DNA from: an uncultured Gammaproteobacteria bacterium
GTDB lineage: Bacteria > Pseudomonadota > Gammaproteobacteria > Steroidobacterales > GCA-2729495
Direction: 5' to 3'
Assembly (NCBI GenBank): GCA_963802215.1
Contig: CAWDHQ010000001.1
Span: 2,216,022-2,280,021 of the forward strand
Length of the DNA stretch: 64,000 nucleotides
The notes below the pieces were generated by a model. That model worked only from the letters and a program-made list of their open reading frames with translations, had not been told where the DNA came from and did no database searches. The translations under genes and the position numbers were made by a program. This document shows, piece by piece, positions 55,118 to 64,000 of the stretch (its first letter is position 1; every line of letters starts with the position of its first letter).

Positions 55118-56479
55118 TTGAGCGCACGGAAGGGAGACCCATCTGTGCGCGCGATCATCGGTGCCCGCTTGCTGGCAAGCGGGGCCGCCCAGCCCAAGGC
55201 CAAACCGTTCGACATCCGGGATAGTCGCCTGGCGGGCTTCCTATTGCGCGTCCAGCCCTCCGGAGCACGGTCCTTCTGTGTCCAGCTCGGCAGGGGCAGA
55301 AGGCTGACCCTGGGCAAGGTGGGCCACCTGACCCCCGAGCAGGCGCGCCACCGGTGCGAGCAGGTGCTGGGGAACGTCGCCCACGGCCGGGAGCCGCTGG
55401 CGGGCCTGGATGGGGCCGCGCGGCTCAGCCTCGGGGAGTTCATCCGGAACCAGTACGAGCCCTGGATCCAGGCCAACCGGCCCCGGAACGCGGCATCCGC
55501 CCTGGCCCGGGTCGAGAACTGCTTTGGCCACTGGTACGACCAGCCCATGTGCGGCCTGTCCACCTACCAGCTCGAAGCCTGGAAGACGGGTCGCCTGGGG
55601 AAGGGCAAGCGGCCGGCTACCGTGCTCCGGGACCTGACCACGTTGTCAGGCATCCTGAGTTTCGCTGTCCGGCTGGGCCTTCTGGCTGACAACCCCATGC
55701 GGCGTGTCCTCAAGCCACGGCTGGACCGGACGCCCAATGTGCGGTTCCTGGACCCCGAGGAAGAGTCACGCCTCCGGTCGGCTCTGGAAGATCGGGACCA
55801 TCGCATCAGGGCCGCCCGGGAGTCCGGCAACGCCTGGCGGCGGGCCCGGAATCATGCGCCGCTGCCCAAGCTCACCGGCTTCGGCGACCACCTGACGCCC
55901 GCTGTCCTGGTCAGCCTCAACACGGGATTGCGCCGCGGCGAGTTGCTGGCGCTCTGCTGGCACGATATCAACCTGCGGCTGGCCGTGCTGTCGGTTCAGG
56001 CCACGTCGGCCAAGAGCGGGCAAACGCGCCACGTCCCCCTCAACGCCGAATGCATCGAGACCCTGAAACGCTGGCGGGACCAGAATCCGGATGCCAGTCC
56101 CCTCGACAAGGTGTTTGCGGTCAGCACCTCATTCAAGACCGCCTGGTCGGTGGTTCTGAAAGCGGCCGGTATCAAGAGATTCCGCTGGCACGACCTGCGC
56201 CACCACTTCGCCTCGCGGCTCGTCCAGGCCGACGTCAATCTCAATACCGTCCGGGAGCTGCTGGGTCACGGCTCACTGGCAATGACGCTGCGGTATGCGC
56301 ACCTGGGACCGGATCAAAAGCGTGAGGCCGTTGACCGGCTGTCCATGCGGCGGGAGGAACCGGCTGAAGCAAGGGCAACGGCAGCGCTGCTGGGATTTCC
56401 GCGAGCTGGCGAATTGCCACCGCCAGACTATTGCCTGCCACCCGCAGCCCGGGGCGGCCTGTCTGCGGCGCACCCTTGA
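55118..56479 (+). CDS. tyrosine-type site-specific integrase, P4-like (DUF4102 arm-binding N-terminus)
   Basis: FDIRDSRLAGFLLRVQPSGARSF N-terminal domain. Catalytic region TGLRRGEL, WHDLRHHFAS, LGHGSLAMTLRYAHL. Start is TTG 55118 or GTG 55144 (after GGGAGA). Confidence 0.88.
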   Translation: MSARKGDPSVRAIIGARLLASGAAQPKAKPFDIRDSRLAGFLLRVQPSGARSFCVQLGRGRRLTLGKVGHLTPEQARHRCEQVLGNVAHGREPLAGLDGAARLSLGEFIRNQYEPWIQANRPRNAASALARVENCFGHWYDQPMCGLSTYQLEAWKTGRLGKGKRPATVLRDLTTLSGILSFAVRLGLLADNPMRRVLKPRLDRTPNVRFLDPEEESRLRSALEDRDHRIRAARESGNAWRRARNHAPLPKLTGFGDHLTPAVLVSLNTGLRRGELLALCWHDINLRLAVLSVQATSAKSGQTRHVPLNAECIETLKRWRDQNPDASPLDKVFAVSTSFKTAWSVVLKAAGIKRFRWHDLRHHFASRLVQADVNLNTVRELLGHGSLAMTLRYAHLGPDQKREAVDRLSMRREEPAEARATAALLGFPRAGELPPPDYCLPPAARGGLSAAHP

Positions 56480-59336: not shown

Positions 59337-59777
59337 TCAAGCGCGACGGACGCGCGCGCCACGGCGCTGAACCGGACCGGTGGAGCGAATGGTTATGCCT
59401 GCGATGGCGCCAAACGAAAGGGCAACGGCTAGGCCCAGTGTGGCTCCCCATAGCACCTGGACGGTTCCAAATGCCGCTGATGATCCCAGCAATAAGCCAA
59501 GAATCGTCAGGGAACAGAAGAATGTGAGTATTCCTCCACAAATGCCAACAAGGGCGAGCGTCACTAGGTTCAACTGGCCAAAGTGTCGAAGGATAAGAAT
59601 GGCCGGCAACCCTATGAACAACATTCCGGCGTAAGAGCTACCGGCAACAAGGCCTACCGTCAGGAACCCCCATGAGAAGCCAACTCCGTTGGCGAGTTCC
59701 AAGCCACCCACGAGCAACGGTAGGACAGCCGGAGCCACGGCAGCTGCGAGTGAGGTACGACGTCTATCGAGTCGCAT
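59337..59777 (-). CDS. hypothetical membrane protein
   Basis: ATG at 59777 (MRLDRRRTSLAAAVAPAVLPLLVG). Four hydrophobic segments. The ATG is embedded in a GTTATGC core. Confidence 0.5.
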   Translation of the reverse strand: MRLDRRRTSLAAAVAPAVLPLLVGGLELANGVGFSWGFLTVGLVAGSSYAGMLFIGLPAILILRHFGQLNLVTLALVGICGGILTFFCSLTILGLLLGSSAAFGTVQVLWGATLGLAVALSFGAIAGITIRSTGPVQRRGARVRRA

Positions 59778-59860
59778 AACGTTGGAGGTGAGCGCCGCGC
59801 GCGCTGCTGTACGAACGTGCCACACGTCTTCCAAGTGCGCGCTCCAGCGAGGTGTCAGGC
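59774..59860 (-). repeat. probable attC site (87 nt) of the 59870..60229 cassette
   Basis: The plus strand reads GCATAAC...GTCAGGC. The 5-nt unpaired spacers are followed by the paired GAGCGC box with one extra base. Weaker than the sites further right. Confidence 0.45.
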
Positions 59861-60235: not shown

Positions 60236-60369
60236 GCCTAACGGCTGAGTTCAGCGGCGGCACGCCAGCGCCATTTTGGCGCGCGGGCGCAACGCGCCCG
60301 CCCAGAAAGTGATGGCGCGCGCCCGCGCGCTAGCACTTTATGGGTCCCCGGAGAGTTCCTACGAAAAAG
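60236..60369 (-). repeat. attC of the ddl cassette, distal part (R' side), separated from its partner by the IS
   Basis: GCCTAAC-ggctga-GTTCAGCGG pairs with CCGCTGGAAC-gcctg-GTTAGCG at 61604-61628 (one extrahelical base). Confidence 0.6.
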
Positions 60370-60383
60370 TGGACACCCATGGG

Positions 60384-61268
60384 TTAGGTACATGTGCGTT
60401 CGAACTCGATCGGTGAGCGGTAGCCCAGGGCAGAGTGTAGTCGCACGCGGTTGTAGAAATCGACGTAGGAGCGGAGGGCCGAGCGCAGGGCACCGTCGCT
60501 GCTGAAGGTGTAGCGGTGGATCAGGTCGGACTTCAGGGACTTGAACATCGACTCCATGTGGGCGTTGTCGGTCATGCGGCGCGGGCGGTTCGTGCTCTGG
60601 CCCAGTCCGGCGCGGCGCAGGCTGGCGGTGTACTCGCCGGCCAGGTACTCAACGCCACGGTCACTGTGGAACAGGGTTCCCGGCCCCGGGCGGCGGGTCT
60701 GCAGGGCCTGACGCAGGGCGCGCCGGGTCAAGGCCGCCGTCTTCTCCGGGCCCAGGCTCCACCCCAACAGCCGCCGCGAGTAACGATCCATGACCGTCGC
60801 CAGGTAGCGCCACTCGGAGCGCACCTTGAGGTACGTCACGTCACCGACCCACACCTGGTCGGGTCGCTCGATGGTGGTGTTGAAGATCTGATTACCGACG
60901 CTGGCATAGAAGCGGCCCAGGCCCGGCAAGTGGCGATACAGGCGGGCCGAGCAGGCCCGGACGCCGTTCTCCCGCATCAAACGCTCGATCCGGCGGCGAC
61001 CCACGCGCTCACCGGCCTGGGTCAGCTCGGCGTGGATCCGGGGACTGCCGTAGGTCTCCCGGCTGGCCTGGTGCGCCGCCTGGATCTTCGCCACCAGTCT
61101 CTGATCCTCGGTGGCGCGCTCACTCGGTGGTCTGGCCCGCCACGCGTAGAAGCCGCTCGGGCTGACGCCATACAGCTGGCACATCGTCCTCACCGGGAAG
61201 AGCGCCTGGCAGTGCTCGATGAAGGCGAAGACGTCGCTTTTTGTTCGGAAGTGAACTCGATGGCTTTT
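60384..61268 (-). CDS. IS3 transposase OrfB (DDE/rve domain), expressed as OrfAB by -1 frameshift
   Basis: Track ORF 60384..61406. Has [16 protein letters not shown] and DNAHMES DDE motifs. Its frame is -1 relative to orfA at the TTAAAAAAAG site (61264-61272). Confidence 0.85.
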
Positions 61269-61546
61269 TTTAAAATCTCGTGCTCGAGCTTCAGGCGCTC
61301 GTAATCCCGCTTCATGGCGCGCAGCGCCTTGAGCTCGGCGGCCGTGTCCTTGTCGATGGCGATCCCTTTGGTCACGATCAGGCCCTCGCGCGCTTGCTTG
61401 CGCCAACGAGACAACATGAACGGATGGATGTAAAGAGACTCGGCCACATCTTGCACGGCAACTCCGGGCAACTGGCTCAAACGCACGGCGGTCGCTTTGA
61501 ATCGGTCGCTGTACTTGTACGTCGTTCTCGGGCCTGGTCGTGGCAT
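61190..61546 (-). CDS. IS3 transposase OrfA (HTH)
   Basis: 118 aa, [23 protein letters not shown]... with a leucine-zipper-like tail, typical of IS3 OrfA. Confidence 0.85.
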
Positions 61547-61583
61547 CTTGGGGTACTCCTGAAGGGTTAGTTCAGGGTGTCCA

Positions 61584-61628
61584 CTTAACCGAAGGAACTA
61601 TCGCGTCCGCTGGAACGCCTGGTTAGCG
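61584..61628 (-). repeat. attC of the ddl cassette, proximal part (R'' side)
   Basis: Ends in GTTAGCG (61622-61628), which contains the ddl TAA stop. AGGAACT here pairs with AGTTCCT on the other side of the IS. Confidence 0.6.
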
Positions 61629-62642
61629 GTCACTTTGCCTGCCTCTGCAGCTTGATATTGCCAATTGGCAAATGCGCTCGCACAACTCAGGGAAGTCAAT
61701 TCCGACCGCCTTTGCCGACTGTGGCAATAAACTCGTCGCAGTGAGCCCAGGAACACTATTGGCCTCCAAGCACCAGATTTGCCCCGCCTCATCCATTCGG
61801 AAGTCCACACGCGAGTAGCCGCCGAGCTTGAGAGCCTTGTGGACCCTAACTCCTAGCTCCTGAATCTCGCGTGTGGTGAATGGCGGAATGTCCGCCGGGA
61901 ATACTTCGCGAGCGCCACCGTGCTGATATTTGCTTGCGTAGTCGAAGATTTCCGTTGGCGCCACAATCTCGCCTACCGCGAGAGCCTGCCCATCAAGTAT
62001 TCCCACCGTGAACTCGCGACCCGGCACATACGCCTCAAGCATGACCTCACGACCAAACGTTGCTGCCTTGGACATCGCCGACTGGAGATCAGCGGCTTCG
62101 CGAACCAACGATAAGCCGATGGTGGACCCTTGGGCGTTGGGTTTAATGATAACGGGATACCCGAGGGTATTTGTTACCGTATCGTCGGGCGTGCACATCT
62201 GCCATGCCGGCGTCGGAACGCCAATCGCGACCATTAGACGTTTGGACACATCCTTGTCCATTGCGATCGCGCTGCCAACATGGCCTGACCCGGTGAATGG
62301 AATACGCAAAGCCTCCAACAAGGCTTGGAAGGTCCCGTCCTCACCCGTGCCCCCGTGCAGAGCGATGAAAACCAGATCGACATCTCGCAGTTCCGGCGAA
62401 CTAGCGACCGCTACCGGAGACTGGCTTCGCGCTTCTACCAGTGCGGTAGTTTCTGGCGGCTTGGTGAAGACCTCAAACCCCTCAAGTGCACGCTCTGCTT
62501 CTTTTGAAAGCACGCCCCTTGCCGTATCTACTGCGATGACGTTGTGGCCGGCAGCCCGAAGCCCGGAGATAACCTGAAGGCCACTAGCGATAGACACGTC
62601 ACGTTCCTCGCTAGAACCGCCAAAAAGCACCGCAACTCTCAC
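61623..62642 (-). CDS. ddl: D-alanine--D-alanine ligase (ATP-grasp)
   Basis: 339 aa with VAVLFGGSSEERDVS, IALHGGTGEDGT, PVIIKPNAQGSTIG, FDYASKY and LEANSVPGLT motifs collinear with E. coli DdlB. Confidence 0.9.
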   Translation of the reverse strand: MRVAVLFGGSSEERDVSIASGLQVISGLRAAGHNVIAVDTARGVLSKEAERALEGFEVFTKPPETTALVEARSQSPVAVASSPELRDVDLVFIALHGGTGEDGTFQALLEALRIPFTGSGHVGSAIAMDKDVSKRLMVAIGVPTPAWQMCTPDDTVTNTLGYPVIIKPNAQGSTIGLSLVREAADLQSAMSKAATFGREVMLEAYVPGREFTVGILDGQALAVGEIVAPTEIFDYASKYQHGGAREVFPADIPPFTTREIQELGVRVHKALKLGGYSRVDFRMDEAGQIWCLEANSVPGLTATSLLPQSAKAVGIDFPELCERICQLAISSCRGRQSDR

Positions 62643-62682
62643 GACGTAACACCGAGCATTGGATGAGGCGCCCGCACGTGAC

Positions 62683-62747
62683 CGCTAACGTCTACGCTGA
62701 CCGGCGCGTGCCCTTCGCCGCGCGACCGGTCGAGCGTTTGGTTAGAG
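62683..62747 (-). repeat. attC site (65 nt) of the brnT-brnA cassette, copy 1
   Basis: CGCTAAC-gtcta-CGCTGACCGGCGCG-loop-CGCGCGACCGGTCGAGCG-tttg-GTTAGAG. Core boxes, unpaired spacers and two extrahelical bases match the canonical attC architecture. Confidence 0.75.
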
Positions 62748-62982
62748 GCCGGTCCGAATGACGATCAGCATAGGTGTCCAGGAGGCTCCGAATCATTCTC
62801 TGATACGGCACCTTTGAGCGTGCGGCATGAGCCTTGAAGAAGTCGACGCTCTTCTTGCTGAGGGAAATGGTGACCTTGACCCCATCTTCCTTCAGGACCA
62901 GCTGGTCTGGGGGCGGAAGAAAGTCATCAATGACCTCCAGCCGGCCGAGCGGCTCATCTGGGTACTTTTGAATGCGCTTCAT
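62692..62982 (-). CDS. brnA: BrnA-type antitoxin (CopG/RHH)
   Basis: 96 aa. KVTISLSKKSVDFFKAHAARSKVPYQRMIRSLLDTYA matches the BrnA family. The C-terminal about 17 aa are encoded by the attC. Confidence 0.8.
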   Translation of the reverse strand: MKRIQKYPDEPLGRLEVIDDFLPPPDQLVLKEDGVKVTISLSKKSVDFFKAHAARSKVPYQRMIRSLLDTYADRHSDRPLTKRSTGRAAKGTRRSA

Positions 62983-63241
62983 AGAGTTTCCTGCCTCTGC
63001 GCCAGAAACCGGCGCCGATGATCCGGATGATGTTGCCTCGATAGGTGAACCTGACCGTCAGGACACCCTCCGATACGCGGCCGAAGCAGTAGTAGCGCTG
63101 CTCAGCCTGGCTGTGCCGCATGTCGCGGGCTATGACGCGGCCAGGATCAAGAAAGGCAATCTGGGCCTCGCCAAACGACACGCCGTGCTTTCGTTGATTC
63201 TCGGCATCCTTGGCCGGGTCCCAGTCGAAATCGGCTGCCAT
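62954..63241 (-). CDS. brnT: BrnT-type toxin (DUF497 ribonuclease)
   Basis: 95 aa. FDWDPAKDAENQRKHGVSFGEA and RIIGAGFWRRG are BrnT/DUF497 hallmarks. The toxin gene is upstream of the antitoxin, as in BrnTA. Confidence 0.85.
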   Translation of the reverse strand: MAADFDWDPAKDAENQRKHGVSFGEAQIAFLDPGRVIARDMRHSQAEQRYYCFGRVSEGVLTVRFTYRGNIIRIIGAGFWRRGRKLYEAHSKVPR

Positions 63242-63303
63242 GCTGGGAGCCTACCACCGGTATGGAGAAAGAGCCATACAACAGTATGGAATATGTGCGC
63301 GGC

Positions 63304-63399
63304 CTCTAACGTTCGAGGTAACCGGCGACCGGAGCGCGAAGCGCGGAGGGTACCGAGAAGCGCAGCTTCTCGGGCGTCCGGTTGACCGAGGGGTTAGGC
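63304..63399 (-). repeat. attC site (96 nt) of the VOC cassette
   Basis: CTCTAAC ... AACCGG ... CCGGTT ... GTTAGGC. The VOC gene TAA stop lies inside the GCCTAAC core (minus strand). Confidence 0.6.
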
Positions 63400-63780
63400 A
63401 CCTGGCGCAAAGTTGAGCTCAATTCCGTTGCCTGCTGGGTCTGCAAAGAAGATTTGGCGGTGACCGATGCCAGGAATCGTGTCGGTCGTGTAGGAAACCT
63501 GGTGTCGTTTCAATGCATCTTCGAATTGGTCAAACTCGGAGCACGCAAGAGCGACATGATCGAGGGTGCTGGCGACATTGGGTGGATGACACTCACCCTC
63601 AAACATGACGGACAAATGGACGATGGGTCGGTTGTCCGCATATAGCCAGTATCCGCTACTGGCAAACGCCGGGCGGGGGCCGAGCTGTAGGCCAAGGACG
63701 GTTAAGTAGAAGTCTTTAACTTGGTCGATGACCGCAGACGACGCGCGAATGTTGTAGTGATCAATGCCGTGGACTGCCAT
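63394..63780 (-). CDS. VOC-family (glyoxalase/bleomycin-resistance/dioxygenase) protein
   Basis: 128 aa. IDHYNIR...LGL and DHVALAC...FFADPAGNGIEL are typical VOC motifs. Confidence 0.8.
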   Translation of the reverse strand: MAVHGIDHYNIRASSAVIDQVKDFYLTVLGLQLGPRPAFASSGYWLYADNRPIVHLSVMFEGECHPPNVASTLDHVALACSEFDQFEDALKRHQVSYTTDTIPGIGHRQIFFADPAGNGIELNFAPGA

Positions 63781-63827
63781 GATTGTCTTGAGTGGATCAG
63801 ATCGTGTTGAAGTCGACTGTGGATGGT

Positions 63828-63892
63828 GCCTAACGTCTACGCTGACCGGCGCGTGCCCTTCGCCGCGCGACCGGTCGAGCGTTTGGTTAGAG
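63828..63892 (-). repeat. attC site (65 nt) of the brnT-brnA cassette, copy 2
   Basis: Identical to 62685-62747 apart from the outermost core bases (GCCTAAC instead of CGCTAAC). Confidence 0.75.
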
Positions 63893-64000
63893 GCCGGTCC
63901 GAATGACGATCAGCATAGGTGTCCAGGAGGCTCCGAATCATTCTCTGATACGGCACCTTTGAGCGTGCGGCATGAGCCTTGAAGAAGTCGACGCTCTTCT
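63837..64000 (-). CDS. brnA: BrnA-type antitoxin, second copy (3' part; gene runs off right edge)
   Basis: 63830-64000 is base-for-base identical to 62685-62855, so the same reading frame and TAG stop apply. Confidence 0.75.
   Translation of the reverse strand, partial: KSVDFFKAHAARSKVPYQRMIRSLLDTYADRHSDRPLTKRSTGRAAKGTRRSA

Follow-up and report, generated by a model that had tools for sequence, protein, structure and literature searches.

A ddl gene, which is predicted to encode a D-alanine-D-alanine ligase (Ddl), forms the fourth cassette of the array in a sedentary chromosomal integron carried by an uncultured gammaproteobacterium of the order Steroidobacterales (GenBank assembly GCA_963802215.1), and the boundaries of this cassette are canonical. 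The stretch of DNA analyzed, referred to below as the window, consists of 64,000 nucleotides (nt) of contig CAWDHQ010000001.1 (positions 2,216,022 to 2,280,021 of the forward strand), here called C1; coordinates given without a contig name are positions in the window. Judging from the sequence, we think it probable that this single-gene cassette at position 4 supplies a functional, horizontally acquired Ddl of the PaDdlA-like type, which may make its host tolerant to Ddl inhibitors. The PDB entries 8EVV, 8EVW, and 8EVX presumably represent DdlA (PA4201) of Pseudomonas aeruginosa.

A ddl integron cassette conferring resistance to D-cycloserine has already been published (PMC7691350), and there is no new mechanism here. 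What is new is the lineage of the Ddl, its setting in a classical chromosomal integron of a gammaproteobacterium, and a boundary-exact copy of the cassette elsewhere; there are also hints of a whole subclade travelling as cassettes across phyla. The locus widens the single published case of integron-borne ddl, which was found in the reverse integrons of oral Treponema. The other integron type together with the other Ddl lineage suggests that integrons have captured the essential ddl family more than once, and outside the clinic, copies of an antibiotic target enzyme may repeatedly serve as a transferable means of resistance. The locus is also a clean example of cassette biology, with an exact cassette duplication, complementary cassette boundaries, and an insertion sequence (IS) that apparently disables an attC site.

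Integron and cassette array

The integron context is complete, with an intact integron integrase gene (intI), an attI junction, and attC-bounded cassettes on one strand. A genome-wide search with the TIGR02249 profile matched intI at C1:2280635-2281573 on the plus strand, uninterrupted and far over the model cut-off (452 bits; cut-off 265). The gene is divergent from the cassette array, and the attI junction, on the minus strand as read from intI, is ...TATAGTTAGAGGC at ~64455. From attI to ~56.5 kb all open reading frames (ORFs) are on the minus strand, and the array spans at least 6 kb. The integron sits on a 2.3-Mb chromosomal contig of a 3.69-Mb genome in three contigs; this location and the length of the array rule out a mobile (clinical class 1-5) resistance integron. 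The features from intI to the ddl cassette are as follows.

64593-65555 (window-equivalent numbering; beyond the window end by ~590 bp), plus strand: intI, ATG at 64593, 320 aa, no internal stops
64454-63834 (63834-64000 in the window), minus strand: cassette 1, BrnT/BrnA copy 1, attI-proximal
63310-63833, minus strand: cassette 2, glyoxalase/VOC (Pfam Glyoxalase)
62689-63309, minus strand: cassette 3, BrnT/BrnA copy 2 (Pfam BrnT_toxin, weak BrnA_antitoxin match), directly upstream of ddl
60242-62688, minus strand: cassette 4, ddl, 1195 bp without the IS, bounded by the T that follows the G/TT crossover in the preceding attC and by the G of the cassette's R'
61623-62642, minus strand: cassette ddl ORF, 339 aa, GTG start, TAA stop, PaDdlA-like D-alanine-D-alanine ligase

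An earlier reading of the sequence alone (hereafter the sequence-only reading) had placed ddl between attC cores, with its stop codon inside GTTAGCG and a cassette start TTAGCGG at 62688, and each of these elements was found as described. Read on the coding strand, the GTTAGCG at 62689-62683 places the 5' boundary of the cassette, which begins with TTAGCGG at 62688; at the other end, the TAA stop (61623-61625) falls within the plus-strand GTTAGCG at 61622-61628, which is the R'' core CGCTAAC on the coding strand. In all four cassettes, bases one to six are complementary to the R'' core of the same cassette (TTAGAG/CTCTAA, TTAGGC/GCCTAA, TTAGAG/CTCTAA, and TTAGCG/CGCTAA, in array order), which is the signature of a circularizable cassette. 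The two BrnT/BrnA cassettes at positions 1 and 3 are identical at 621 of 621 positions, and their identity ends at most four bases from the crossover on one side and one base from it on the other, in bases common to the neighboring cores. An exact duplicate that ends at the G/TT crossovers suggests that the integrase recently duplicated the cassette as a unit.

attC sites and the IS3-family insertion

Eight attC sites, which belong to this integron and to a second one on another contig (C2), were aligned. They share an R''/L''...L'/R' structure in which 86% of the cells were paired, vs 26-39% when the partner was slid by one to three columns; eight of the 20 pairs had changed on both sides, and the observed covariation was higher than in any shuffle. 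Within the window, the covariance model derived from these eight sites (model R1) matched array positions only, and the 55 kb of core DNA gave no match at E < 1. The sites and the element that interrupts one of them are the following.

63304-63399, minus strand: attC of the glyoxalase/VOC cassette, model R1 77.5 bits
62683-62747, minus strand: attC of the preceding BrnT/BrnA cassette, hairpin fold; its R' GTTAGCG is the 5' boundary of ddl
61603-61628, minus strand: 5' part of the ddl attC, R'' CGCTAAC (contains the stop codon) and L''
60351-61602, minus strand: IS3-family element, orfA 61190-61546, orfB 60384-61406 (NCBIfam transpos_IS3, 292 bits)
60236-60350, minus strand: 3' part of the ddl attC, with the variable region, L', and R' GTTAGGC; the next cassette begins at 60241
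59774-59860, minus strand: attC outside the training set, between ORFs of 119 and 165 aa, model R1 22 bits (E 0.005)

The site at 62683-62747 scored 60.3 bits (E 4.6e-13) as a member of the training set, and the 3' part of the ddl attC alone scored 28.7 bits (E 8.5e-5). The 1.25-kb IS3-family element, which has 28-nt inverted repeats at 60351-60378 and 61575-61602, breaks the ddl attC 19 nt after R''; neither the exact ends of the element nor a possible target duplication can be placed to better than a few bases. Without the IS, the ddl attC is 141 nt long and folds at -50.4 kcal/mol (z = -4.25), and none of 200 shuffles folded as well. In the reconstructed site, the pairs R''/R' and L''/L' enclose a branched center, which fits the structure shared in the array. 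Thus the assignment of the flanking sites as attC in the sequence-only reading held at both ends, with 60 bits upstream and, downstream, an IS-less site that folds with 86% of cells paired. The insertion leaves 1.25 kb between the attC halves, and probably stops the hairpin from forming and so fixes the ddl cassette in place.

A second copy of the IS, 89% identical, is found at C2:1296513-1297729. The genome has only these two copies and both lie within integron cassette arrays, the one on C2 ~4.4 kb from the second intI. The flanks of the C2 copy, examined for an attC, gave no convincing fold. The intI of the second integron (C2:1302155-1303092) was matched by the model in two frames (positions 2-288 and 289-314) and thus may carry a frameshift close to its C-terminal end. 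This integron has clear attC sites upstream, with R' cores at C2:1301408, 1300903, 1299552, 1295291, and 1294606.

Our own hairpin scan, based on R''/R' anchors and DNA folding, was specific and insensitive in its strict form, in which it recovered two to three true sites in 66 kb and gave one false match within the IS transposase. The relaxed form was too noisy, with one to three matches per 10-17-kb locus, and was not used for conclusions.

The cassette enzyme

The product of the cassette gene is predicted to be a D-alanine-D-alanine ligase. Both Pfam domains of Ddl were matched over their cut-offs, Dala_Dala_lig_N (PF01820) with 87.4 bits (cut-off 34.6) and Dala_Dala_lig_C (PF07478) with 162.5 bits (cut-off 24), and so were two NCBIfam models, NF002378 (PRK01372; 326.1 bits, cut-off 243) and TIGR01205 (286.3 bits, cut-off 245.65). 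At 339 aa this agrees with the full-length ATP-grasp Ddl that had been proposed from the sequence. The protein database entry begins 15 codons further downstream (324 aa); we regard the GTG at 62642 as the likely start because homologs span the whole N-terminus, including the conserved GGxSxERxVS motif. The closest solved structure is PDB 8evv, annotated as "D-alanine--D-alanine ligase A" (420 bits, 59% identity), and the same search gave ~170-205 bits for DdlB-type enzymes and ~150 bits for VanA.

In an alignment with Escherichia coli DdlB, residues E15, H63, K97, K144, S150, E180, E187, K215-Y216, R255, D257, E270, N272, G276, and S281-L282 of DdlB are all kept in the cassette Ddl, where their counterparts include E13, H96, K130, K167, S173, E203, K238-Y239, R278, D280, E293, N295, G299, and S304-L305. 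The segment FDYASKY aligns with FYDYEAKY of DdlB, as the sequence-only reading had it, and K238-Y239 corresponds to K215-Y216. Because the Lys-Tyr of the omega loop and the Leu at DdlB position 282 are kept, and because all cut-offs of the Van models were failed, the enzyme appears to be of the D-Ala-D-Ala type and not of the Van type. The same residues and model scores favor D-Ala-D-Ala over D-Ala-D-Lac or D-Ala-D-Ser specificity, as had been suggested, and the accompanying idea of an altered dipeptide specificity found no support, with both the omega-loop Lys-Tyr and Leu282 retained.

Probable foreign origin of the cassette

A second ddl gene is present at C1:1750707-1751441, in the order murB-ddl-ftsQ-ftsA, and encodes a DdlB-type protein of 316 aa with the segment FYDYQAKY. 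The sequence-only reading expected the housekeeping gene in the mur/fts (dcw) cluster outside the window; it is indeed there, between murB and ftsQ/ftsA, and the cassette gene is not the sole ddl of the genome. The two enzymes share 38% identity over the full alignment (41% in the best local one), and the housekeeping Ddl has all catalytic residues. Its close relatives are labelled Gammaproteobacteria or Chromatiales metagenome-assembled genomes (MAGs), from which the host, too, is placed among the gammaproteobacteria.

The lower GC content of the cassette gene relative to the core, noted at the outset, is borne out: it has 57.3% GC and 60.9% GC at third codon positions (GC3), vs 70.0% GC and 92.4% GC3 for the housekeeping ddl and 67.4% GC for the whole genome. 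None of the 24 same-genus genomes searched carries the cassette-type ddl; they gave only a ~40% match to their own housekeeping gene, and one incomplete genome gave none. By its composition and distribution, the cassette ddl is judged to be foreign and horizontally acquired.

Relatives and mobility

The nearest relatives of the cassette Ddl are two metagenome proteins with 92% identity. On one metagenome contig (L028) the nucleotide identity of 91.6% is confined to the part that corresponds to window positions 62687 to 61627, that is, from the first cassette bases to R''. The flanks are unrelated: the L028 gene is preceded by a 200-aa ORF and followed by a convergent PIN/DUF433 pair. Both cores of the L028 copy are degenerate (GGTAGCG upstream and no CTAAC downstream), so that it may be a decayed cassette. 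The ratio of nonsynonymous to synonymous substitution rates (dN/dS) between the cassette ddl and the L028 copy is 0.16, and the gene thus appears to be under purifying selection.

In a maximum-likelihood tree of 82 sequences (quick search; support by the Shimodaira-Hasegawa-like approximate likelihood ratio test), VanA/VanB served as the root; E. coli DdlA and a VanG-like sequence diverge after them, and the DdlB-type pair lies apart from the 8evv-like family. The cassette Ddl falls within the 8evv-like family, in a clade of 32 sequences with a support of 100 and a long stem of 0.48. This clade has only eight specific substitutions, which are mostly conservative. Clade-specific active-site changes that would hint at inhibitor insensitivity were looked for, and none of the eight is at a known catalytic position.

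Relatives with 71-76% identity sit among small, unrelated, same-strand genes. The ddl of a Verrucomicrobiales MAG (L032) has GTTAGCC 45 nt before its start and TGACCGCTAAC at its stop, and three weak attC-model matches each begin a few bases from a stop codon, namely that of ddl and those of two downstream genes. In a 991-kb contig (L103), an attC match (E 0.0014) ends 37 nt before the ddl start, and in a Thiodiazotropha MAG (L104) two small upstream genes of the same-strand run each have a match at their end (E 2e-4 and 1e-3). Full integron integrases over the model cut-off, unlinked to the ddl locus, are encoded in the Thiodiazotropha MAG and in a gammaproteobacterial MAG that carries a 76% relative (L035); the Verrucomicrobiales MAG has partial matches below the cut-off at a contig end, also unlinked. 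Based on the attC-model matches beside the gene in these three other contexts and on the one boundary-to-boundary copy, it is conceivable, although we hold it doubtful, that the PaDdlA-like clade of 32 sequences circulates as integron cassettes among unrelated environmental phyla (Gammaproteobacteria and Verrucomicrobiota) and forms an unrecognized environmental reservoir of transferable resistance to Ddl inhibitors of the D-cycloserine type, possibly with an intrinsically less sensitive enzyme.

The sister half of the clade gave no attC matches, and model R1 had almost no matches in 54 loci of more distant homologs and four sister-subclade loci; these sparse negatives weigh little because the model is tuned to the GC-rich attC type of this genome. 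A tblastn search with IntI over 75 homolog loci (flanks of up to 8 kb) found no IntI, and FtsQ, MurB, and FtsA detected dcw neighbors for two distant homologs only. Most family members are therefore neither in the dcw cluster nor adjoining intI within the fetched flanks. In PLSDB, no plasmid carries the cassette ddl at 60% identity or more; the nearest entries are a Burkholderia replicon (56%) and a plasmid from an Acinetobacter lake isolate (51%).

Three further observations concern members of the family. In two genomes of the same order, G035 (locus L017) and G032 (locus L018), the PaDdlA-like type (58-59% identity) is the sole Ddl at E <= 1e-30, and the subfamily thus seems to be the housekeeping ligase in some lineages, outside the dcw cluster. 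A 72%-identical ddl on a metagenome contig (L115, 6299-9008) lies amid small same-strand genes, including those for a YkuD L,D-transpeptidase and a GFA-family protein; the attC model had no match there, and the run of genes ends at an IS66 element. The 135-kb plasmid p12SAAs474 of Acinetobacter sp. SAAs474, a lake isolate, has two annotated ddl genes flanking an IS982 transposase gene (NZ_CP127913.1:69822-82811), and one of the two products is 50.6% identical to the cassette enzyme.

Proposed function of the ddl cassette

If the cassette is functional, as we think probable, its transcription may come from the integron promoter or by read-through from the toxin-antitoxin cassette upstream; the BrnTA cassette that directly precedes ddl needs expression to work and may read through into it. 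The activity of the cassette Ddl would add to that of the housekeeping enzyme, and the extra Ddl could give tolerance to competitive Ddl inhibitors, of which D-cycloserine is the archetype, by target dosage or bypass. By analogy, D-cycloserine tolerance through dosage would match published experiments on other ddl cassettes: ddl6 and ddl7 raise the minimal inhibitory concentration (MIC) of D-cycloserine in E. coli, but not the MICs of vancomycin or β-lactams (PMC7691350). Amplification of ddlA also leads to D-cycloserine resistance in E. coli (PMC8579933), and functional selections with D-cycloserine recover Ddl, which was interpreted as target overexpression (PMC3675766).

Several points weigh against this interpretation. 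Promoter scans found no sigma-70 consensus promoter between intI and ddl, the GTG start is not preceded by an obvious Shine-Dalgarno sequence, and ddl comes only fourth among the cassettes. The dN/dS value records past selection over two lineages, and not necessarily a present function in the host. In addition, we know of no Ddl inhibitor in the habitat of the host.

The position in the array and the empty promoter scans, together with the weak start context and the attC broken by the IS, would suit a silent passenger, that is, a stored and essentially unexpressed gene of the integron "library" which gives no current benefit and is frozen by the IS. Distal cassettes of sedentary integrons are generally poorly expressed. 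We nevertheless consider such a passenger unlikely, since the ORF is intact with all catalytic residues and a dN/dS of 0.16, and since the upstream toxin-antitoxin cassette, which must be transcribed to function, could read through into ddl. The ligase might instead be an alternative housekeeping isozyme, a second Ddl with other kinetics or regulation for particular growth conditions, as in species that have both DdlA and DdlB. Its subfamily includes such a second Ddl, the "ligase A" of PDB 8evv beside a "ligase B," and its occurrence as sole Ddl (at the above threshold) in the two same-order genomes makes a housekeeping role possible. This explanation appears quite improbable to us, because the type is absent from all 24 congeners searched, because the gene came as a mobile cassette of foreign composition, and because the published ddl cassettes gave a resistance phenotype.

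A Van-like ligase of altered specificity, making D-Ala-D-Lac or D-Ala-D-Ser, is extremely unlikely. The similarity that could speak for it is weak (192 bits with the VanG model and 162 bits with the D_ala_D_lac model), and all Van models stay far below their cut-offs of 495-775 bits, VanG with its 192 bits against 495. The conserved Lys-Tyr and Leu282 described above also argue against it, as does the tree, in which VanA and VanB are outside the 8evv-like family, and no domain typical of vanH, vanX, or vanT was found among the array ORFs scanned (ten with Pfam and four others with NCBIfam).

Comparison with known Ddl systems

The integron-borne ddl6 and ddl7 of Treponema denticola and ddl(GC) of T. 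pedis (Rahman et al. 2020, Sci Rep, PMC7691350) share with the present gene that a second, horizontally acquired ddl is an integron cassette, that its stop codon lies in the R'' core of attC, and that its GC content is below that of the host. A separate housekeeping ddl and the Tyr of the omega loop are likewise common to both. The Treponema enzymes are, however, closest to those of Firmicutes (~55% identity; PMC7691350), whereas the present one has 59% identity to DdlA of PDB 8evv. Their integron is a "reverse" one with the cassette at position 1, whereas the integron here is classical, with a divergent intI and with ddl at position 4 and its attC disrupted by an IS. The Treponema hosts are oral, and the host here is an environmental gammaproteobacterium.

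The DdlA chain of PDB 8EVV (347 aa vs 339 aa) shares 59% identity with the cassette enzyme over 334 aligned residues, an insertion of ~35 residues in the N-domain relative to DdlB, and identical residues throughout the active site; it differs in its tree position, outside the clade of 32 sequences (support 100). E. coli DdlB (PDB 2DLN/1IOV) and the dcw-encoded Ddl of the host have the same ATP-grasp fold family, catalytic residues, and Lys-Tyr end of the omega loop, but only 38% identity, and they are of the DdlB type without the N-domain insertion and encoded in the mur/fts cluster. Ligases of the VanA, VanB, and VanG types belong to the same superfamily (30-34% identity). The omega loop of VanA and VanB is longer and has Glu-Val and Glu-Asn, respectively, in contrast to Lys-Tyr in the cassette Ddl, and VanA, VanB, and the VanG-like sequence have Arg at DdlB position 282, where the cassette Ddl has Leu. 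The cassette enzyme misses the curated cut-offs for Van ligases by hundreds of bits.

Distal end of the array

Below ~58200 the boundaries within the array are without recognizable GTTAG cores. At 55118-56479 on the plus strand, a gene convergent with the array's distal end encodes a 453-aa P4-like tyrosine integrase (Arm-DNA-bind_3 and Phage_integrase domains), which at 34 bits with TIGR02249 is no integron integrase. The possibility that the ddl segment belongs to a tRNA-type genomic island run by this integrase was considered and rejected, as the attC sites, attI, and intI explain the segment. With the P4-like integrase beside the array, the low-GC region therefore joins the integron to another mobile element.

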